A DNA stretch of 27,396 nucleotides. Source: a virus. Lineage: Duplodnaviria > Heunggongvirae > Uroviricota > Caudoviricetes. Below, in pieces: positions 1 to 16,176 of the stretch. The notes under the pieces are model-generated. The model saw nothing but the letters and a program-made list of their open reading frames with translations. It was not told the origin of the DNA and did not search any database. How positions within the stretch are numbered: the stretch's first letter is position 1; each line of letters starts with the position of its first letter. The translations under genes and the position numbers were made by a program. The stretch is from IMG/VR virus record IMGVR_UViG_2541047887_000006, one strand, 5' to 3'.

Positions 1-334
1 TCAGCCAACAAATTTAGCAACAAATACAGCAACCGCCGCCGTGAAAATGGTTGTGCATACTGGCACAATAATGCCACTCCAACGCCACTTCGTATTATCA
101 TCAACCTTGTCAAACCGCCGATTCATCTCATCCATAATCTTGTCAAAGCGTTTATCCATCGCTTCGGTAAGCTCACCCTTCAGGCTGTTAATGTCTGATT
201 TGAGCTGCTCTTTCAGGTGAGCTGTATCAGATTTAAGCTCACCTTTCAGATTCGCAATATCGCATTTAAGATCACCTTTCAGATGAGCAATGTCTGCTTT
301 GAGCTCACCTTTCACCTCACCAACATCGGCTTTG
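1..334 (-). pseudogene. 3' portion of an IS911-interrupted gene: coiled-coil protein with five 11-aa tandem repeats and a C-terminal hydrophobic anchor; function unknown
   Basis: ORF track 1..315 (its GTG at 315 is just the first start after the IS). Frame is continuous with 1588..1784 once IS911 and one GTT copy are removed. Stop TGA at 3..1. C-terminal hydrophobic stretch IIVPVCTTIFTAAVAVFVAKFV. Confidence 0.6.
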
Positions 335-335
335 G
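171..335 (-). repeat. Five imperfect 33-bp tandem repeats, in frame, encoding 11-aa units (K-x-D-I/T-A/G-x-L/V-K-G-E/D-L)
   Basis: Units read directly at 171-203, 204-236, 237-269, 270-302, 303-335, sharing the core gctcacctttcag...atttga. Confidence 0.85.
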
Positions 336-367
336 TTTGAAGTGGTCAACAAAAACTGGCCACCGAG

Positions 368-1515
<1,148 letters not shown>

Positions 1516-1587
1516 TATGGCACCTGTGTTGTTCTGAGGTGAGCATATCACCTCTGTTCAGGTGGCCAAATTCAGTAAACCACTTCA

Positions 1588-1784
1588 GTTGAGAGGTTTG
1601 TAGTGCGTTCAGCAAGCGTCGCAAGGTCGTTTCTTGTTAGCGATAAATCACCTTCGAGCCGCTCAATTCGCCTTTCAAGTTTATCTGACATTCCGCCTCC
1701 ACTATCACCGCCTCCCCCATCGAAAGAATTGCCAATGTCCTCACGAATAAGGGTTATGCCATGCTCACTTTTAGCATATGCCAC
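1588..1784 (-). pseudogene. 5' portion of the IS911-interrupted coiled-coil gene
   Basis: GTG start at 1784-1782 preceded by GGGAGGG 7 nt upstream (minus strand). The track ORF 1572..1784 reads 5 codons into the IS end before stopping. N-terminal region has a Gly/Asp-rich stretch GGGGDSGGG. Confidence 0.55.
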
Positions 1785-2183
1785 TCAGATTCCCTCCCAA
1801 ACTATATATCCTTTGTCTCTTGCCCAACAAACAACTGTGTGGGCTGTATATGTGGATGTGAAGCCGCAATAAGAACATGACACTTCATACCGAGTATTGT
1901 AGATGTTAATGGGCTCGTTCTCCTTGTGTATGGGAGTGACATATTCCCAATCATTTGAATCATCATAATCATCAAGTTCAGGGTCTGTGCCGTGAACAAC
2001 CGTATGTGGAATAAACAAATCTGGGCGCCCACACGAGAGACAAGAGGTTCTGGCTCCTCTATCTTTGAGGAATTGAATAAATAATTTGGGCGAAATCTGT
2101 TGCAGAACCTGCAAATGCCCACGTTCATTATCATTAAGAGACCTGTCTGCATATGGAAAATCATCAAATTTAAGAGGCTTCAT
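1785..2183 (-). CDS. Hypothetical Cys-rich protein (two CxxC motifs, CLSCG and CSYCG); AT-rich cargo gene translationally coupled to int
   Basis: ORF track 1785..2198. ATG at 2183 has GGAG 9 nt upstream; the start lies 11 nt inside the int 3' end. Stop TGA at 1787-1785 abuts the next gene's GTG. Confidence 0.5.
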   Translation of the reverse strand: MKPLKFDDFPYADRSLNDNERGHLQVLQQISPKLFIQFLKDRGARTSCLSCGRPDLFIPHTVVHGTDPELDDYDDSNDWEYVTPIHKENEPINIYNTRYEVSCSYCGFTSTYTAHTVVCWARDKGYIVWEGI

Positions 2184-3162
2184 ATAAGGCATCTCCAAGG
2201 GGATTAAATCTCACCGCATCCTGCAGGTAATCCGGCGCAAGATGGGCATAAATCATCGTTGTCTGAATCTTTGCGTGCCCCAAAATTTTCTGGAGGGTCA
2301 GAATATTGCCGCCGTTCATCATGAAATGACTGGCGAAGGTGTGGCGCAGCGCATGAACAGCCTGGCCGTCAGGAACATCAGGTGCGACCGTTTTGATGAC
2401 ATCGCGAACCAATGAATAATCCAGCGTCGGAAACACCAGTTTCCCGCCCCGTTTTTTGATCTTTTCAAACAGGCTTTCAGAAATAGGAACGGTACGGTTT
2501 TTGCTGTTCTTCGTTTTTGAAAAAGTGATTCGACAATGAAGAACACGGCGCTGCTCCAGTGCCGCTACCTCGCCCCATCGCGCCCCGGTCGACAGAAGGA
2601 TTTCGACAGCCAGCCGTTCATCGGGATTTTCAGCCAGTGCATCCAGCAACTGAACACATTCAGACTTACTCAGGTATCCCATTTCGCGCTCGTTAACCTT
2701 CATTCCTTTAAGGCCTTGAACGGGGTTATCGTTAAGAAAATGGCCGGATGAGATGAGTGCGGTAAACATCGCGCTTAACGCCCCAATCTCTCGATTTATG
2801 GTGCTGGGCTGTATCCCCTGCTCTATCCTGGACACACGTAGCTCGGTGAGCATCGTTGTATTAAGTTTATGCACGCACGGGTCATCCATTGCTTCACTCA
2901 AGCGCAGCAATTTAAGGCGCGTGTTATGCCCTGACTTCATTAGCTGGCCGTGGTATTTCCACCACAAGTCAATAAGCACTGACAGAGGACGGCGATCAAT
3001 AGAGTTTCCTTTCCACTCATTGTTATGCTGTTGCGCCAGCACCCACCGCTCATATAAAACTGCATCCGATTTCGTTTTAAATTTTTTGCGAATGCGTTTG
3101 CCTTTACGCCCCTCAGGGCGCATGTCAAGAAGATACCCTCCCGGAATTGATTTTATGCTCAT
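2170..3162 (-). CDS. int: P2-type tyrosine integrase
   Basis: ORF track 2170..3312; internal ATG at 3162 matches the P2 Int N-terminus (MSIKS... vs MAIKKL...). Catalytic motifs ARWGE, HALRHTFAS, IYAHL. Lies directly downstream of C as in P2. Confidence 0.93.
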   Translation of the reverse strand: MSIKSIPGGYLLDMRPEGRKGKRIRKKFKTKSDAVLYERWVLAQQHNNEWKGNSIDRRPLSVLIDLWWKYHGQLMKSGHNTRLKLLRLSEAMDDPCVHKLNTTMLTELRVSRIEQGIQPSTINREIGALSAMFTALISSGHFLNDNPVQGLKGMKVNEREMGYLSKSECVQLLDALAENPDERLAVEILLSTGARWGEVAALEQRRVLHCRITFSKTKNSKNRTVPISESLFEKIKKRGGKLVFPTLDYSLVRDVIKTVAPDVPDGQAVHALRHTFASHFMMNGGNILTLQKILGHAKIQTTMIYAHLAPDYLQDAVRFNPLGDALYEAS

Positions 3163-8901: not shown

Positions 8902-10023
8902 ATGGGCGACTTAGGTGGTATTCAGTCAGATTTAGCCCAACTAGTTAGACTGGTAATAACTGAACAGTATGATGACGTTCGGTTATATGTCGCTCGCTTG
9001 GTGCGTAAATATCGGGAAACTATGCCTGCTCTATCCGAGCAGCTTGATCTTTATCTACGAAATAAACCGCAAAAGCCTGCACAAAGCCTGCGTAAGGTTA
9101 CCGCACCAAAACAAGCGCTGCCTCAAACCATGCCTGTGGACGAGGAGTCAAGGCTTACCTTGCTTAAAGCACCAAATGAAAAGATTGTGAGCAAACCTCT
9201 ACTGTCCAGTCAGATAGAAGACTCACTGGATCAAATTATTCTTGAGCGGAAGCACATCGATCGCCTCAAGACTCTCGGCTTACAACCAACACGCTCTGCC
9301 ATTTTTGTTGGCCCTCCGGGTGTAGGTAAAACACTTACGGCAAGCTGGTTAGCTCAGAAATTAGGGGTTCCTTTTTACGTTCTTGATTTAACGGCAGTAA
9401 TGAGCAGCTATCTGGGCAAAAGCGGAAATAACCTTCGGGCAGCTCTAGATTTTGCGAAGAAAGGGCCGTGCGTTCTTCTGTTAGATGAAATTGATTCAAT
9501 CGCCAAAAAGAGAAGTGATGATTCTGATGTTGGAGAATTAAAAAGACTTGTTACCGTGATACTCCAGGAGGTTGACGAATGGCCGTCTTCTAGTTTGCTA
9601 CTTGCTGCAACTAACTTCGCTGAGTTGATTGATCCAGCACTATGGAGACGTTTTGATTTAGTGCTCAATTTTGAGAAGCCAGATAGCGAAAGTATTAAAG
9701 AAGCAATTAAACGCTTTTCGGGTCCCGACTACGCGATTTTTGCACGTTGGATAGATCTACTGGCTATTATGTTCAAAAATGAATCTTTTAGTAATATTGA
9801 GCGTTCTATCAACAAATTCCGACGTTCGGTCGCTTTAGGTATTTCCTCAGATGAAGAGTTGATTGGGTCGTTCATTAAAGATGGTTTATCAGAATTAGAC
9901 AGGAATGAACGTAAAGAAATTGCAGTTACTCTAAAAAGAAATTCTAAATTATCCCAGCATGCCATATCAGACTTAACCGGAGTCAGTAGGGATACAATTA
10001 GAAAATACAGTCAAAAAATGTAA
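8902..10023 (+). CDS. AAA+ ATPase with C-terminal HTH-like tail; IetA-like by architecture
   Basis: Walker A GPPGVGKT, Walker B VLLLDEID. C-terminal LSQHAISDLTGVSRDTIRKY. 373 aa, first gene of the operon. Confidence 0.8.
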   Translation: MGDLGGIQSDLAQLVRLVITEQYDDVRLYVARLVRKYRETMPALSEQLDLYLRNKPQKPAQSLRKVTAPKQALPQTMPVDEESRLTLLKAPNEKIVSKPLLSSQIEDSLDQIILERKHIDRLKTLGLQPTRSAIFVGPPGVGKTLTASWLAQKLGVPFYVLDLTAVMSSYLGKSGNNLRAALDFAKKGPCVLLLDEIDSIAKKRSDDSDVGELKRLVTVILQEVDEWPSSSLLLAATNFAELIDPALWRRFDLVLNFEKPDSESIKEAIKRFSGPDYAIFARWIDLLAIMFKNESFSNIERSINKFRRSVALGISSDEELIGSFIKDGLSELDRNERKEIAVTLKRNSKLSQHAISDLTGVSRDTIRKYSQKM

Positions 10024-10046
10024 TACAGCATAGATAAGGAGTATGT

Positions 10047-12272
10047 ATGGCGAAAACTAATTTTCTGATTGGACGCGGCGAATTATTAACCAGCGATATT
10101 CCTGGTCCTAAAAGAGTGCCCGGAAAAGCTGAGGTTTATTCTCTTTACGAATCGAAACAACGTTTATTGCCGCAAATTGCATCTACTATAGAAAATTTTG
10201 ATGATTTACCCAGTCAGGCATGTCCTTATGATTATGCTGTGGCTAAGTTGACGTTGAATCCAAGCTATATTGCACGCTCTTTTTTTCCTGCAAAAATGCT
10301 TAAGTCTACCGGGTTAACGTCTATTGGCAGCAGGACGGTAAAAATTACGCCTCAAAGCTGGAAGCGAAAAGTTACTGTGTCAGAAGTAACTACGACACAA
10401 ATGTTTGTTGCTGGTAAAAGAGAATCCTTCAAAGAGTTACCTCATTGGGTGTCAGAACTCAAAGAGTTTTCTGACGAAGCGATTGATTTTGCACGCATAG
10501 AACGGTTCGATGCCTATTTACCCGAAGAGCGTATTATTACCATTGGTGAGCAGGATTCTTCGTATTTTGAGGTTGGTGTTCATTTACTGCCAGATAATGA
10601 ACAAGACTTGGTTCAGCAACAATTTGTTCAGTTTGCATCAAATTTGAACATCAAAGTACATACTTCATTAGCTTTTACCGCTGGTACATTATGGTTCGTG
10701 CCAATCCAGGCCGATAGAATTACTATTAGTAAGCTTGCGAAATTTACATTTGTACGAGTAATAAGACCGGTTCCAAGATTGCGTGGGATTAGACCAATAC
10801 AAAGGAACTACGGTCCTTTAGCTCAGTGTAAATTACCTGCTGAGGGCCCCGTATCTTCAGAAATAAAAGTTGCGATTCTTGATGGTGGTTTACCATCAGA
10901 GCACGCTATATCGCCATGGTTAAAATCCTATAGAGTTTTGGACGATCATGCAGAGGATGATCCAGACGGTTTAGAGCATGGTTTAGCTGTGTCTTCAGCC
11001 TTTTTATTTGGACCAATAAGTAATAAATCGGAAGCGAAAAGACCATACTCTTATATTGATAACTTAAGAGTTTTGGACAACAAGACCTGCCAAGAAGATC
11101 CGCTGGAACTATATCGAACTTTGGGCTTTATTGAAGAGGTATTGTTGTCTCGCCAGTATCAGTTTATCAATCTAAGTTTAGGTCCAGACCTACCAATTGA
11201 AGATACGGAAGTTCATGCATGGACTTCCGTTATTGATGATTTGTTAAGTGATGGTGAAACATTAATGACTGTTGCTGTTGGCAACAATGGAGAAATGGAT
11301 CGCAAGTCTGGTAATGCAAGAATTCAAGTACCAGCCGATTGCGTTAATGCTCTTGCTGTTGGTGCTTGTGATACAGTTAATGATACGGAATGGAAACGAG
11401 CACCATATAGCGCCATTGGGCCAGGCAGAAGTCCTGGCGTGATGAAACCGGATTTAGTTGCGTTTGGTGGTGACACAGACGAGTACTTTCATGTTTTAGG
11501 TAAAGGTAAGAAGCCTGTAATCATACCCCAGCTAGGAACAAGCTTTGCCTCTCCTTACGCCTTACGAGCAGCTGTTGGTGTTCGGGCAATTTTAGGGAAC
11601 GATTTGAGCCTACTAGCAATCAAAGCTTTGTTAATTCATGCGTCAAAACAGCTTGATCATCCTTGTACAGAAGTTGGCTGGGGAAAACTGCCTGAAGACT
11701 TGAACGACATTATAGTCAGCCCTGATGGTGTTGCCCGTATCGTCTACCAAGGTGAATTGAAACCAGGAAAATACTTACGCGCTTCTCTTCCAATACCTGA
11801 AGGTGGCTTGAAAGGTAGAATAAACTTAGCGGCAACTTTCTGTTATGCAACAACCACTGATCCACAAGACCCAGCTTCCTATACAAAAGCTGGTTTGGAA
11901 GTGACATTCCGGCCAAATGATTCAAAAATCAAAGACGGAAAACAAAATGCTGAAACCAAGGGATTCTTTGAACTGGCCAAATATTCAACTGAAAGTGAGC
12001 GACGTTCTGACATGGGCAAATGGGAGACCGTCTTACATAATTCGAAGAACATGCTAGGTTCAACTCTAAAAAATCCTGTATTTGACATTCATTATAACGC
12101 TCGTGAGGCCGGTGCAAGCATAGCCAGCCATAAGGCAGAAAAAATCAAGTATGCTCTTATAATTACCATTAAGGCATCAAAGCACCAAGACCTGTATAAC
12201 GAAATTTTACGTACTTATAATCAGGTGCTCGTGCCAATTCAACCGCAAACATCAATTCCTATTCGTTCGTAA
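10047..12272 (+). CDS. Subtilisin-like S8 serine peptidase, apparently cytoplasmic; IetS-like by architecture
   Basis: Catalytic Asp in VAILDGG, His in EHGLAVSS, oxyanion Asn in INLSLG, Ser in GTSFASPYA, in canonical D-H-N-S order. No N-terminal signal peptide. AAGGAG RBS 5 nt upstream; 23 nt downstream of the ATPase stop. Confidence 0.85.
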   Translation: MAKTNFLIGRGELLTSDIPGPKRVPGKAEVYSLYESKQRLLPQIASTIENFDDLPSQACPYDYAVAKLTLNPSYIARSFFPAKMLKSTGLTSIGSRTVKITPQSWKRKVTVSEVTTTQMFVAGKRESFKELPHWVSELKEFSDEAIDFARIERFDAYLPEERIITIGEQDSSYFEVGVHLLPDNEQDLVQQQFVQFASNLNIKVHTSLAFTAGTLWFVPIQADRITISKLAKFTFVRVIRPVPRLRGIRPIQRNYGPLAQCKLPAEGPVSSEIKVAILDGGLPSEHAISPWLKSYRVLDDHAEDDPDGLEHGLAVSSAFLFGPISNKSEAKRPYSYIDNLRVLDNKTCQEDPLELYRTLGFIEEVLLSRQYQFINLSLGPDLPIEDTEVHAWTSVIDDLLSDGETLMTVAVGNNGEMDRKSGNARIQVPADCVNALAVGACDTVNDTEWKRAPYSAIGPGRSPGVMKPDLVAFGGDTDEYFHVLGKGKKPVIIPQLGTSFASPYALRAAVGVRAILGNDLSLLAIKALLIHASKQLDHPCTEVGWGKLPEDLNDIIVSPDGVARIVYQGELKPGKYLRASLPIPEGGLKGRINLAATFCYATTTDPQDPASYTKAGLEVTFRPNDSKIKDGKQNAETKGFFELAKYSTESERRSDMGKWETVLHNSKNMLGSTLKNPVFDIHYNAREAGASIASHKAEKIKYALIITIKASKHQDLYNEILRTYNQVLVPIQPQTSIPIRS

Positions 12273-12740: not shown

Positions 12741-12839
12741 GAAGCAGCAGACAAGCGAAGCGCGTCAGCGATACGGCACCTTGCCGACCATACTTCATAA
12801 GTGCAAAATACGAGCAAAGAAATCAATGGAGGCTGTCTT

Positions 12840-13364
12840 ATGGTCATTAATTACAAGCAGTTAAGAGAAAAACGGGAGCAGGTAAAGGAGAGCTTTCGCC
12901 GCAATGAAGATCTGACCCCGCTTGTACGCCTTGCCCAGGGCATTGTTGATGCTTATGAAATCTCGCTGGAGCTGCCATCACAGACCTGGACAGATAGCGA
13001 CGGTAATCGCCAGCATTACGTTTCATGCGGACTGGAAGCAGCCGAAGGATTTCGCAGAATGCCTTTATCCCAGATCCCTGCCGCTACCCCCAAAGCACGG
13101 GGCAGCAATGATGAGCGAAAACTGACTTTTAGTATTGAAACGGTGGTTGACGACACACCTGGCGAAGTCGCGTTCGTGCACACGCCTGTTTCGATCGCAA
13201 TGTATAACGATGAAATACAGGTTCGCGTTAATAATAATATCGTGCCACTTAAAGAAGGTAATTCACCCTACACCACCGTTTGTGAAGCCATTCAATATTA
13301 CGTTCTCTCTGAAATTGATAATCTCAAGCCTGACGGCACCCAGAAAATGGTTCAACTCTGGTAA
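12840..13364 (+). CDS. Hypothetical moron protein (174 aa), convergent with Q
   Basis: ATG 12840 with GGAGG 7 nt upstream. Bracketed by the hairpin at 12712-12740 and the bidirectional terminator at 13370-13395. Confidence 0.6.
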   Translation: MVINYKQLREKREQVKESFRRNEDLTPLVRLAQGIVDAYEISLELPSQTWTDSDGNRQHYVSCGLEAAEGFRRMPLSQIPAATPKARGSNDERKLTFSIETVVDDTPGEVAFVHTPVSIAMYNDEIQVRVNNNIVPLKEGNSPYTTVCEAIQYYVLSEIDNLKPDGTQKMVQLW

Positions 13365-13369
13365 AAAGG

Positions 13370-13395
13370 ACAGCCCCATCACGGGGCTGTTTTTT
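13370..13395. terminator. Bidirectional rho-independent terminator shared by the moron (plus) and the P-Q operon (minus)
   Basis: Stem ACAGCCCC / GGGGCTGT, loop ATCAC, T6 on plus and T5 on minus. The Q stop codon lies in the loop. Confidence 0.7.
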
Positions 13396-14425
13396 CATCA
13401 AGAAGAGCATAAGAGTTAAAACGGATCACCTCTTCGCCAAGCCAGTCATTGATGTGCTTCATAGCCTCCATGACGGGCATCAGCTCGTTAATTGCGTAAA
13501 CCCGCGCTGCCTTCTCCACATCGCCAAACGCACTTTTTTCGCCCGGCATCGCCCCCATCAGTTGCGGCGGAACGCGGTGCGCAGCCAGCACATCATCACG
13601 GGATGCCGCCTTAACATTCATGAATTCATCTTTTGCGGTGATCTGCTGGAACGGCAAAATTTGCACCCCCTCTTTGCCCCCGTTGGGCGCATGAATGAGC
13701 ACGTTTTTAAACGCACCACCACCACGTGCCCCCTGTAGCGTTTCTTTCAGGGAGTCCATGCTTTCGCGGTTTACCTGCGCTGCACCGATGTAGATAATGC
13801 ACCCGGCGTGGGATCCGTTGTCGTAGTACAGTTTTCTGAACATGTCCGCCGAATGAGAAAGGCTGGCCGAGAGTAATGCGCCAAGATATTCCGGCATGCC
13901 GTAGATTTCCTGGTTAATATCCGGATTCATCAGGTGGCACACTTTGCCAGGACGAAACTGAAACGCGTCCTTGCCATCCTGCACATACCACCATGATTCA
14001 AGATCGCTTCCGCGTCGCATGTATTTCGCCAGGGCGTGCCGTAATTTAAGCGGTTCGCCGAGCATATTGCTTCGAAGCTCAAGGAATGCGTTACCGAACA
14101 CAAACCAGTCCAGCGCCAGCGCCGAGAAATCCTGCCGGGAAAGCAGCGGGTGCGGGATGTAGCAACCGAGTAATACATTGCGCTTAAAGTAAAGCGCAGA
14201 CTGATGCCAGGACGTTTGCCGGGCTGCTCTTGCCAGACCGTACCAGTCCACCGGGGTTTCATACCACCGCCCGTTATCAGCACAGTACATATTGTCCAGC
14301 AGGTCATGCCCGGTCAGGCGATAAGGACCATCAAATGTGAATGCACTGAGCGATGATTCTTTCCTGAGCGCATCAGCGAGATCAATGCGTGAACTCATGC
14401 GCACTTTTTTATTTTTTCTGCTCAT
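13379..14425 (-). CDS. Q: Portal protein
   Basis: 348 aa matching P2 gpQ pattern (HNGRWYETPV, FVFGNAFLE, PDINQE, HAG.I.Y). ATG overlaps the P stop (TGATG). Confidence 0.92.
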   Translation of the reverse strand: MSRKNKKVRMSSRIDLADALRKESSLSAFTFDGPYRLTGHDLLDNMYCADNGRWYETPVDWYGLARAARQTSWHQSALYFKRNVLLGCYIPHPLLSRQDFSALALDWFVFGNAFLELRSNMLGEPLKLRHALAKYMRRGSDLESWWYVQDGKDAFQFRPGKVCHLMNPDINQEIYGMPEYLGALLSASLSHSADMFRKLYYDNGSHAGCIIYIGAAQVNRESMDSLKETLQGARGGGAFKNVLIHAPNGGKEGVQILPFQQITAKDEFMNVKAASRDDVLAAHRVPPQLMGAMPGEKSAFGDVEKAARVYAINELMPVMEAMKHINDWLGEEVIRFNSYALLDEKTAP

Positions 14426-16176
14426 CAGAACTCCATAACCGTGAAACGCTCGTTTTCTCCTTCGCCGCCAATTGGTTCGTTAATGACAGCAAGCATGGTT
14501 GCCCACGCAAGGTCGCCGTGGCTGATCCCCCTCGCGCGGTCCGTTTCGTAAGTGATAAAGCCGCCCGGTGTTTTCACCTTACGCACGGCGTTAAAGGCTG
14601 CGACCAGCTCGCGTTCGGCGCGATCGTATTCCCACCGCCCGGCACGCATTATTTGCAGCATTTTCAGTACCAGCGACCGTTTTGATGACAGCGTGAAGGT
14701 GTACGGAATAGCAGCAGGGAAAAACCGTTTCACTATCTGATAAACAGCCTCCCCGTTCCCGCCTGTCACATCAATGCCGATGTGTTCCACGTTGTAGCGA
14801 CACGTGAACTCTTCAATGACTCTGGCCTGTTCTTCAAACTCCAGCCCCTGAACGCGTCGCGTCTCCACCGTTCGAAAACGGCCGCCAGGAACAGCCGGAG
14901 GAACCACCACGGACACAGCGCCGCTGTCGCCGTTTCCACTGCTGCCGTTTGCGTCATACCCAATCCATACCGGACGATTCCCCATCGGGCGGGGAGCAAA
15001 AGGTTTCCAGTCTTTCCAGTCGTCGTATCCGTCAACACCGCAGCCAATCAGGATATTCAGGTTAAATGCCGATTCCCCTTCGCGGACAAACTCACACATA
15101 TAGAGATTGAGGAACTCGTCTTCGGTGTTTTCATCACGAATTTCGTCGATATCGGTGTGTTTCCAGCCGTGATTAACCACATCTTCCAGCGTGACAATTT
15201 GCCGCCACGTCCGGTCAGGGCAGATAAGCCCGTTATGCAGCGTTTTCCAGTCCACAGAAAAACGCTGGCGTTTATGCGAGGCCTTTTTCTCGTTCCAGCG
15301 GTCGCCGTTCCAGTAGGCGTATGCCTCGTGCGTTTCGGTGGATGGCGTGGAGAAGTAGGTGCGCCGCAATCCGCTGAGGGTTGCCATAGCGCCAGCCACC
15401 TTGCGCAGTTCAGCAAAGCGACTGACCCAGAAAAATTCATCAAAATAAAAATTGCCCGTATAGGACTGCGCCGACGCAGCAGAAGTGCCGAGAAAATGCA
15501 GCTCTGCGCCGTTGGAGAGGATGATTTTATCGCCCCCTTTCAGCTCCACATCAACTTCAGCCGCAGCCTTCTGAATAATGCTTTTAAACTGGAACGCCTG
15601 ACGACGCGACGCAGACAAAAAAATCTGGTTACGCTGGTAAGGTTGCGCCACATCGTCACGCAGCGCCATCAGCAGTGCTTCCTGTGCAAAATACCAGGTC
15701 GCGCCAATCTGTCGGGATTTCAGGATCATCCTGTTACGTATCCCGGCTTCCCTGCAAAGGGTCAGGGAGTCAAACCAGCCCCGCTGATGCCACTCCAGCC
15801 TGCTGATGATTTTTTCCCGCAGTGCGGCAATCTGTTCCGGCGTGAAATGATTTTTGAGTTTTTTCGCCCGGCCTTTCTTTCCTGTGGCCGTCGCATCCGG
15901 CTGGCCATCATGCATTTTTTTAAGCTGCCGGGTCAGCAGGTCTATTTCCTTAAAGTCACCGCCTGTTTTATTCTGTTTTTCAGTAAGCTGGATGAGGCGC
16001 GCATCGATGGACTGCGTGACACGCTGCACGGGTGGCGTTTCATCCCACTGGTCGCGTTTTTTCCACGCATAAATCGTGTTCGGGTTTATTCCCATCAGAC
16101 GTGATATTTCTGCGGGCGGATAACCCTGCCAGTAAAGTTGCCGCGCACGCTGGCGCACAAAAGCGTCCTGAATCAT
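14425..16176 (-). CDS. P: Terminase large subunit
   Basis: 583 aa immediately upstream of Q and divergent from O, matching the P2 gpP position and size. Confidence 0.9.
   Translation of the reverse strand: MIQDAFVRQRARQLYWQGYPPAEISRLMGINPNTIYAWKKRDQWDETPPVQRVTQSIDARLIQLTEKQNKTGGDFKEIDLLTRQLKKMHDGQPDATATGKKGRAKKLKNHFTPEQIAALREKIISRLEWHQRGWFDSLTLCREAGIRNRMILKSRQIGATWYFAQEALLMALRDDVAQPYQRNQIFLSASRRQAFQFKSIIQKAAAEVDVELKGGDKIILSNGAELHFLGTSAASAQSYTGNFYFDEFFWVSRFAELRKVAGAMATLSGLRRTYFSTPSTETHEAYAYWNGDRWNEKKASHKRQRFSVDWKTLHNGLICPDRTWRQIVTLEDVVNHGWKHTDIDEIRDENTEDEFLNLYMCEFVREGESAFNLNILIGCGVDGYDDWKDWKPFAPRPMGNRPVWIGYDANGSSGNGDSGAVSVVVPPAVPGGRFRTVETRRVQGLEFEEQARVIEEFTCRYNVEHIGIDVTGGNGEAVYQIVKRFFPAAIPYTFTLSSKRSLVLKMLQIMRAGRWEYDRAERELVAAFNAVRKVKTPGGFITYETDRARGISHGDLAWATMLAVINEPIGGEGENERFTVMEF

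Follow-up and report, generated by a model that had tools for sequence, protein, structure and literature searches.

The DNA considered here (hereafter the window) is the 27,396-nucleotide record IMGVR_UViG_2541047887_000006 of a Caudoviricetes virus, of which the first lines hold an array of 33-bp tandem repeats. These repeats quite probably represent the stalk coding sequence of a small tail-anchored protein of the DUF1640/CCDC90-like type, which gains and loses whole repeat units and is carried as cargo by a prophage. The protein would be composed of a flexible Gly-rich N-terminus, a heptad helix, a neck with the motif L-S-T-K-A-D, seven hendecad (11-residue) units, a linker and a C-terminal hydrophobic helix, the seven hendecads being five units of a K-x-D-I type and two of a M-D-x-x-x-R-F-D-K type. 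In the window the gene is a pseudogene, inactivated by an insertion sequence (IS), and what this stretch itself holds is ordinary coding repeats of a known family in a dead gene.

Five in-frame 33-bp units were found at 169-333 on the minus strand, which is the coding strand. In the register that begins with lysine (K register), they encode KADVGEVKGEL (unit 1, 333-301), KADIAHLKGDL (unit 2, 300-268), KCDIANLKGEL (unit 3, 267-235), KSDTAHLKEQL (unit 4, 234-202) and KSDINSLKGEL (unit 5, 201-169). Tandem Repeats Finder reported a period of 33 with 3.2-3.8 copies and 74-77% matches at 210-333, which together with the minus-strand translation confirms an earlier reading made from the sequence alone (the sequence-only reading), namely five tandem in-frame 33-bp repeats encoding 11-mers of the KxDIAxLKGEL type. 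The array had been placed at 171-335, which designates the same repeats but is displaced by 2 nt from the K register. On the contrary, the units had been described as near-identical and this did not hold, as their pairwise DNA identity is only 58-79% (mean 68% over all pairs of the five units); the longest exact in-register match among them is 13 nt. The self-identity of the array at period 33 is 0.69, compared with 0.26 +/- 0.04 and a maximum of 0.39 in 5,000 shuffles, and the array is therefore far beyond chance. The 11-residue register is continued by two more 11-mers (residues 122-143; 103-168, minus strand), TEAMDKRFDKI at 168-136 and MDEMNRRFDKV at 135-103.

The stop codon of the repeat open reading frame (ORF) lies at 3-1, so that the window starts exactly there, and the frame is open up to 334. 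This 3' gene fragment (1-334, minus strand) extends from the last base of codon 66 to the stop and is 100% identical to the intact gene of Escherichia coli strain 2D (CP059003). The 5' fragment (1588-1784, minus strand) has its GTG start at 1784 and encodes residues 1-63 and the start of the neck motif L64-S65-T66. When the IS element and one GTT are removed, an ORF of 531 nt and 176 codons is obtained; the long frame that had been anticipated is thus restored, with a length of 176 amino acids (aa) instead of the approximately 177 aa proposed. In the reconstructed protein, residues 67-121 are the five 11-mers of the K-x-D-I-A-x-L-K-G-E-L type.

The start codon is annotated in different ways. 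The GTG at 1784 adjoins the stop codon of the upstream ORF (TGA-GTG) and GGGAGGG is located 7 nt upstream of it. RefSeq places the start at an internal ATG (1691), which gives 145 aa, and other gene callers choose an upstream GTG or ATG that results in 154-192 aa. The frame upstream of the RefSeq ATG is open in every allele examined, at the minimum as far as a start codon that touches or overlaps the stop codon of the ORF before it, and it reaches still further upstream in two loci (L003 and L010). Moreover, the N-terminal peptide is recognisably alike in Klebsiella (VAALKRDRGITLL versus VAYAKSEHGITLI), and the alignment with phrog_9415 begins at residue 23 of the 176-aa form. The annotated RefSeq start may be wrong, and a real 176-aa product is plausible from the sequence, although unproven. 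In the segment above the internal ATG (window 1691-1784, minus strand; 6001-6093 in L001, the strain 2D locus), a short peptide that is conserved and, after it, the Gly-rich linker GGGGDSGGG are encoded.

That the repeat frame is a coding sequence is supported by the way in which it varies. Differences between units amount to 30, 23 and 51 at codon positions 1, 2 and 3, respectively; for the N-terminal helix as for the divergent anchor, a dN/dS of about 0.3 was obtained between alleles. The sequence-only reading could have been contradicted by a frame that is non-coding in intact homologs, but this third-position bias, the dN/dS, the DUF1640/CCDC90 annotation of intact homologs and a match of the family profile to the PDB chain 6h9l_A all point to a coding frame.

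The C-terminal hydrophobic anchor IIVPVCTTIFTAAVAVFVA (residues 154-172; 16-72, minus strand) has a Kyte-Doolittle 19-residue mean of 2.43 and is followed only by KFVG and the stop codon, so that it lies 4 residues from the C-terminus. A C-terminal anchor had been proposed immediately after the repeats; the anchor is indeed predicted, but the two additional 11-mers and a 10-residue linker between the last of them (residue 143) and the hydrophobic segment intervene. AlphaFold2 (AF2) was run as a monomer on a 31-sequence alignment and gave a mean predicted local distance difference test score (pLDDT) of 68.7 and a predicted template modelling score (pTM) of 0.30. In this model, residues 1-31 are Gly-rich and disordered (pLDDT below 50), residues 32-141 form one continuous helix with pLDDT 77-89 across the repeats, and a break at 142-144 precedes a terminal helix at 145-175. 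When the monomer was compared with the PDB, the matches were to long helices, vimentin for example, and none was significant; a single helix carries no fold information and this search was consequently uninformative.

Hydrophobic periodicity peaks at 3.5 residues per turn over residues 32-65 and at 3.67 over the five units (3.67-3.7 over residues 67-143). The sequence thus reads as a predicted heptad segment followed by a hendecad segment, the two being joined at the neck L-S-T-K-A-D. Among the 31 aligned family members, no column is better conserved than three of the neck: D69 does not vary, and the conservation of T66 and K67 reaches 90% or more. Eleven residues over three turns (3.67 residues per turn) correspond to a slightly right-handed, almost straight coiled coil (PMC4786415). 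A hendecad coiled-coil stalk formed by the repeats is supported in the predictions by the 3.67 periodicity, by the continuous AF2 helix and by the family-profile matches. Coiled-coil and structure prediction of the reconstructed protein, which gives the helix at 32-141 with this same periodicity, and the 11-residue offset found in 25 of 26 distant members hence favour the proposal of a right-handed coiled coil or stalk as far as an 11-residue stalk is concerned. The five-unit array is the variable part of this stalk.

DUF1640 proteins are integral membrane proteins of prokaryotes and mitochondria in which the motif [aliphatic]-A-T-K-[polar]-[D/E] opens the C-terminal stalk (PMC4786415). The neck of the window protein, L64-S65-T66-K67-A68-D69, meets this motif with S replacing A. 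The Pfam family PF07798 (CCDC90-like, formerly DUF1640) was matched by the window protein with E = 6.7e-6 and 26.5 bits over profile positions 68-171 only. Among 31 relatives, 25 match PF07798 at E <= 1e-3, with 2.3e-10 as the best value. Three distant members, P0056, P0140 and P0065, pass it at 40-54 bits, and distant members bearing a head match from profile position 1. In the same way, RefSeq names the intact copies 'DUF1640 domain-containing' or 'CCDC90 family' protein. A single-sequence search of the PDB with the window protein returned nothing significant; only the search with the alignment profile gave a match, to 6h9l_A (E = 1.9e-7), in which ATKEDIEALRK 11-mers are aligned with the units. 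The entry 6h9l is, we assume, the archaeal protein of Adlakha et al. 2019.

An exhaustive profile search over 1.84 billion representatives yielded 6,482 matches at E <= 1e-3, of which 966 at E <= 1e-10. In the 26 distant matches that were sampled, the best self-repeat offset was 11 in all but one, with roughly 4-9 units, and most had the ATKxD neck and a hydrophobic segment at 8 residues or less from the C-terminus. The family members human MCUR1 and CCDC90B, yeast Put6/Put7 and 6h9l share with the window protein a coiled-coil stalk started by a neck and a single C-terminal hydrophobic helix, and most sampled prokaryotic members carry 4-9 tandem 11-mers as it does. The differences lie at the other end and in the genomic location: the family has an N-terminal head, in place of which the window protein shows a disordered, Gly-rich peptide of 31 residues and a heptad helix of 32, and the family is chromosomal or organellar whereas the window gene belongs to a P2-like prophage. 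On the evidence of its sequence, the neck, stalk and anchor fit the family, and the protein would be a phage-borne, head-less new member of it. For human MCUR1, a head-neck-stalk-anchor layout has been described, in which stalk length is important for interaction (review PMC8224590). The family profile also matches giant proteins in up to 12 stretches, such as P0050 (3,006 aa), P0060 (2,156 aa), P0063 (1,723 aa) and P0148 (2,072 aa), and the 11-residue unit type may be used in giant proteins too. Other matches were judged compositional and set aside, including those to Apolipoprotein, Mer2, Baculo_PEP_C and similar Pfam families and those to ZorA, LmuB and LeoBC in PADLOC (E = 2e-5 to 1.5e-3), which all fall on coiled-coil segments and were not taken to indicate a defence role.

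The number of K-x-D units is 2, 3, 4, 5, 6 or 7 among close enterobacterial homologs and always changes in exact 11-aa steps; it is therefore not invariant between strains. Such changes are present in each N-terminal type of the protein, which implies that they are recurrent. For instance, outside the array hardly anything distinguishes P0004, with 3 units, and P0012, with 2 units, from the window protein. A 3-unit allele on a 227-kb contig appears the same as the window gene save for a hybrid unit-1/unit-3 junction: the 3' bases of its first unit are those of the third unit in the window, which is what a deletion of 66 bp, in register and through the shared GAAAGGTGAGCT, would produce. In a 6-unit allele (222-kb contig), the third unit is duplicated (32/33 identical), and in a 7-unit allele (117-kb contig) the second unit is found three times (33/33 and 32/33 identity). 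These variant alleles, on contigs of 117-227 kb, are all at the same locus. Finally, a second allele class is without one of the two M-D-x-x-x-R-F-D-K units.

On the contrary, the complete E. coli genomes are uniform. The gene is carried by 39 of 5,426 such genomes, and all 36 full-length copies, from O157:H7, O145, O26, O103 and O55:H7, have five units; five-unit alleles also dominate the large protein clusters. Since every spanning copy in these genomes has five units, the variation would be occasional, by unequal recombination or slippage between diverged units, rather than a rapid phase variation, and frequent slipped-strand change is unlikely because the units are so far from identical. 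The idea that copy number is a source of length variation thus stands between strains, with 2-7 units, but not within complete E. coli genomes, and the slipped-strand or recombinational mechanism attached to it agrees with the in-register deletion and duplication junctions provided that slippage is infrequent.

A contingency locus, in which frequent slipped-strand mispairing would create rapid and selectable length variation in clonal populations, was considered in the light of these data. Like the variable-number tandem repeat and contingency genes of surface proteins, the window gene has in-frame DNA repeats whose number varies between strains and changes protein length, very close alleles such as P0004 and P0012 do differ in unit number, and adjacent units are perfectly identical in some alleles. 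Nevertheless, the diverged units, whose exact in-register matches do not exceed 13 nt, and the constant five units of the full-length copies in complete E. coli genomes, across several serotypes, are unlike contingency genes, and five-unit alleles prevail in the large clusters. In addition, the changes are in-frame and hence provide no on/off switch, the repeat number of Borrelia bdrT was unchanged in culture (PMC3303823), and the window protein is predicted to be tail-anchored in the inner membrane whereas contingency proteins are exposed at the surface. Such a locus is therefore improbable here. A coiled coil of alpha/beta type, each K-x-D unit being a short beta-layer, seems unlikely as well, even if K-x-D-[I/V] recurs in every unit in resemblance to the (A)TKxD beta-layer motif and 6h9l_A, the best solved relative, repeats ATKEDI every 11 residues. 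The known case is Tcar0761, a prokaryotic coiled coil which, like the window protein, has short tandem repeats around a T-K-x-D-I-A motif, in that instance MATKDDIAN nonads; its period is 9 and its helix is strained into beta-layers, whereas the window period of 11 fits an unstrained, near-straight helix (PMC4786415). Beta-layers are reported to result from a spacing of 6 or 9 residues (PMC4786415), the full neck consensus with S/A-T before K is found in the first motif only, unlike in the Tcar0761 repeats, later units reading E-L-K-x-D, and the AF2 helix is unbroken, though a monomer model could not reveal a beta-layer.

Two further explanations concern the function of the locus. A lysis or membrane-damaging factor of holin, XhlA or spanin type would share the overall shape of a coiled coil with one hydrophobic helix, and weak PHROG matches to an Rz-like spanin (E = 0.006), a holin (E = 0.007) and a hemolysin (E = 0.02) were obtained. 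It is nonetheless quite improbable, as phrog_9415 (function unknown, E = 3e-15) and PF07798 match far better, the gene belongs to the lysogeny arm with the repressor and the integrase, whose strand it shares, and not to the late region, and a homolog in a Liberibacter phage is beside a primase gene and not beside lysis genes. A role at the DNA level, with the 33-bp repeats serving for example as protein-binding sites near the attachment site and the frame being incidental, is scarcely credible: the array is indeed at most about 450 bp from the prophage-chromosome junction, but third-position bias and a dN/dS of about 0.3 speak for selection on the protein, distant proteins keep the 11-residue pattern, the neck and the anchor, Pfam and PDB profiles are matched, and the unit number is free to vary between otherwise identical prophages.

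In the preferred explanation, a tail-anchored DUF1640/CCDC90-like stalk protein carried as prophage cargo, alleles with 2-7 units would occasionally arise when the diverged 33-bp units recombine out of alignment or slip during replication. Eleven residues being three helical turns, a gain or loss of whole units keeps the hydrophobic seam in register, and each unit would change the length of the stalk by about 1.6 nm. By analogy with the family, the protein is probably an oligomeric rod, presumably trimeric, with a stalk that is probably a parallel oligomer, likely a trimer. The yeast homologs face the mitochondrial matrix (PMC7519068) and the C-terminal tail is just four residues, from which we infer a cytoplasmic N-terminus and a C-terminal anchor in the inner membrane. 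The rod would probably keep its N-terminal part at a fixed separation from the inner membrane on the cytoplasmic side. The gene is probably an accessory gene expressed in the lysogen, of the lysogenic-conversion type, and possibly works with the ORF upstream of it.

Several points weigh against this explanation. The window protein is under the Pfam gathering threshold (26.5 versus 33.5 bits) and the canonical DUF1640 head is not matched, profile positions 1-67 being empty. Profiles of coiled coils attract compositional matches, as seen with Apolipoprotein, Mer2, ZorA and LmuB, so that some of the 6,482 matches may be spurious. As for the trimeric rod, its handedness and its topology, an AF2 monomer with such a pTM cannot show an oligomer by itself. 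Co-transcription with the integrase gene rests on gene order and on the lack of a good promoter match, and the repeated disruption of the gene by IS elements indicates that it is dispensable. To our knowledge, no function has been assigned to any bacterial member of the family.

A close parallel is offered by the Bdr proteins of Borrelia. A tblastn search of plasmids with the window protein retrieved genes for 'Bdr family repetitive protein' at 33-35% identity over 77-81% of the query (E = 1e-6 to 9e-6), scores that coiled-coil composition inflates. The Bdr protein of B. miyamotoi matches PF07798 at 45.1 bits and has tandem LKSDIxxVKSD-type 11-mers and a C-terminal hydrophobic anchor; in an hhalign comparison of the family profile with Bdr, just 24 columns of the anchor region were aligned with confidence. 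Bdr proteins show an association with the inner membrane and are of unknown function (PMC10016077), and in cp32 prophages their genes have been classed as 'lysogenic conversion' genes (PMC3303823). Both Bdr and the window protein have an N-terminal part, imperfect tandem 11-residue units, a C-terminal hydrophobic anchor (a predicted one in the window protein) and a prophage as carrier. In both, unit number differs between strains with nearly identical flanks: 2-7 units in the window family, and for Bdr a number that is constant in culture yet about 9 versus about 6 between orthologs 99.4% identical (PMC3303823). Bdr units carry a KID/KIE tripeptide (PMC4370689) whereas the window units read K-x-D-I with no KID or KIE, and Bdr is a large paralogous family in each genome whereas the window gene is present in one copy per prophage. 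Bdr has been called 'unique to Borrelia' (PMC4370689), and no paper linking it with CCDC90 was found in the literature searched.

It is tempting to go one step further and to view the upstream CxxC ORF and the DUF1640-like protein as a lysogenic-conversion module of P2-like prophages, the enterobacterial counterpart of Bdr, in which the rod is a molecular ruler with steps of 1.6 nm (2-7 units) whose length is selected; we regard this extension as rather doubtful. The ruler would position the N-terminal peptide or a partner at a defined distance from the inner membrane, possibly so as to hinder phage DNA on its way in or to disturb a membrane complex of the host. If it were true, what Bdr and the prokaryotic MCUR1/CCDC90 relatives do could be addressed in E. 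coli as a tractable system. The DUF1640/CCDC90-like family counts its prokaryotic representatives in the thousands; human MCUR1, still under debate as to its role, and Borrelia Bdr, a puzzle since the 1990s, belong to it. Natural alleles that differ only in the number of stalk units, along with the IS knock-outs, provide a genetic handle on stalk length and on the binding partner.

The repeat gene comes last in a P2-like prophage whose insertion site is adjacent to btuC. The order of the locus was everywhere the same in the loci examined, with a helix-turn-helix (HTH) repressor, the integrase, a small ORF (129-166 aa), the repeat gene and btuC on one strand, and the core DNA common to all 5,426 genomes resumes about 110 bp past the stop codon. 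The repeat gene is thus phage cargo at the integrase end. The P2-like integrase (2170-3162, minus strand; Int_N and Phage_integrase domains, 'phage integrase' in RefSeq) lies directly upstream of the two-gene cassette formed by the small ORF and the repeat gene. The P2 repressor and integrase are expressed in the lysogen, and from the gene arrangement we infer that the cassette is co-expressed with them; when L001 was scanned, nothing resembling a promoter was seen on the plus strand from the integrase gene to the repeat gene, which is weak negative evidence. A Klebsiella P2-like element carries the same cassette between the integrase and tail genes. When the phage collection was searched with tblastn, the gene was found in no cultured E. 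coli phage and only in the Klebsiella P2-like element and in Liberibacter phages, where the primase neighbourhood mentioned above gives no functional clue. A strong terminator-like hairpin, GGCCGCTCTGCGGCC, followed by a T run was observed at 6641-6655 of L001, exactly where the common E. coli sequence resumes. This hairpin belongs to host core DNA, and transcripts of the cassette would hence end at a host terminator; the window ends at the stop codon of the gene, with the hairpin outside it.

The small upstream ORF (1785-2183, minus strand) encodes 132 aa beginning with MKPLKFDD, overlaps the 3' end of the integrase gene and matches phrog_4293 (E = 2.5e-30). It is found at the same position in all related loci and contains two CxxC pairs (CLSCG and CSYCG), so that its sequence looks zinc-ribbon-like; no match was obtained in Pfam, NCBIfam, PADLOC or the PDB. 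RefSeq leaves it unannotated in strain 2D. Two forms of this partner ORF were observed, of 129-132 aa and 160-166 aa, and in eight loci each form pairs with one N-terminal type of the repeat protein (MAY/VAxAK versus MGN), a pairing that may be simple linkage or may reflect a partnership.

The gene is interrupted in the window by an IS3-family element of 1,250 bp with 27-nt terminal inverted repeats (338-1587, minus strand). It contains orfA (1551-1213, HTH_Tnp_1) and orfB (1186-368, rve), with an A6G slippery motif in the orfA/orfB overlap (1264-1258), all on the minus strand. A target-site duplication flanks it, with one copy at 335-337 and the other at 1588-1590, and reads GTT on the plus and AAC on the minus strand. 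Both flanks are 100% identical to the uninterrupted strain 2D allele, on which they overlap by exactly 3 bp, which indicates a clean transposition with a 3-bp target duplication. The insertion point falls within codon T66, inside the neck motif. Strain M1/5 carries, at this same site, an element that matches it with 100% identity along the full 1,250 bp and is named 'IS3-like element ISEc52 family' by RefSeq; we take the window element to resemble IS911 as well.

This 531-bp gene has been struck by IS3-family elements at least three separate times, insertions also being present in L012 (3724-4972), L004 (3477-4690) and the M1/5 locus L002 (4751-6000). The window and M1/5 have a common insertion site (gene nt 195-197, AAC duplication). 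In CP044151, a 94%-identical element is located 12 bp downstream (gene nt 207-209, ATG duplication), and in strain 300709 a different IS3-family element is found near gene nt 476. Two neck-region insertions lying 12 bp apart suggest either a preferred IS target in this region or relaxed selection on the gene. In M1/5 (NZ_CP053296.1, 4575-6337), the integrase, the repressor and the partner ORF are gone and the IS adjoins early-region genes, which suggests that an IS-associated deletion followed the insertion.

A P2-like prophage with a replication endonuclease makes up the remainder of the window, and no part of the window matched an RNA family in Rfam. The remaining ORFs presumably correspond, by size and order, to the P2 portal, terminase and capsid genes. 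Two adjacent ORFs on the plus strand (8902-12272), IetA-like (373 aa, E = 1e-77) and IetS-like (741 aa, E = 1e-51), are located between the replication gene and minus-strand ORFs of 348 and 583 aa (13379-16176), the latter two being of what we assume to be portal and terminase size. The Iet pair, by its matches an anti-phage defence pair, occupies what seems to be the variable 'hotspot' position of P2. In parallel, an ORF of 187 aa with no PADLOC match lies on the plus strand at 12801-13364, between the IetS-like gene and the 348-aa ORF (13379-14425, minus strand), and is a further unexplained cargo gene of this variable region.

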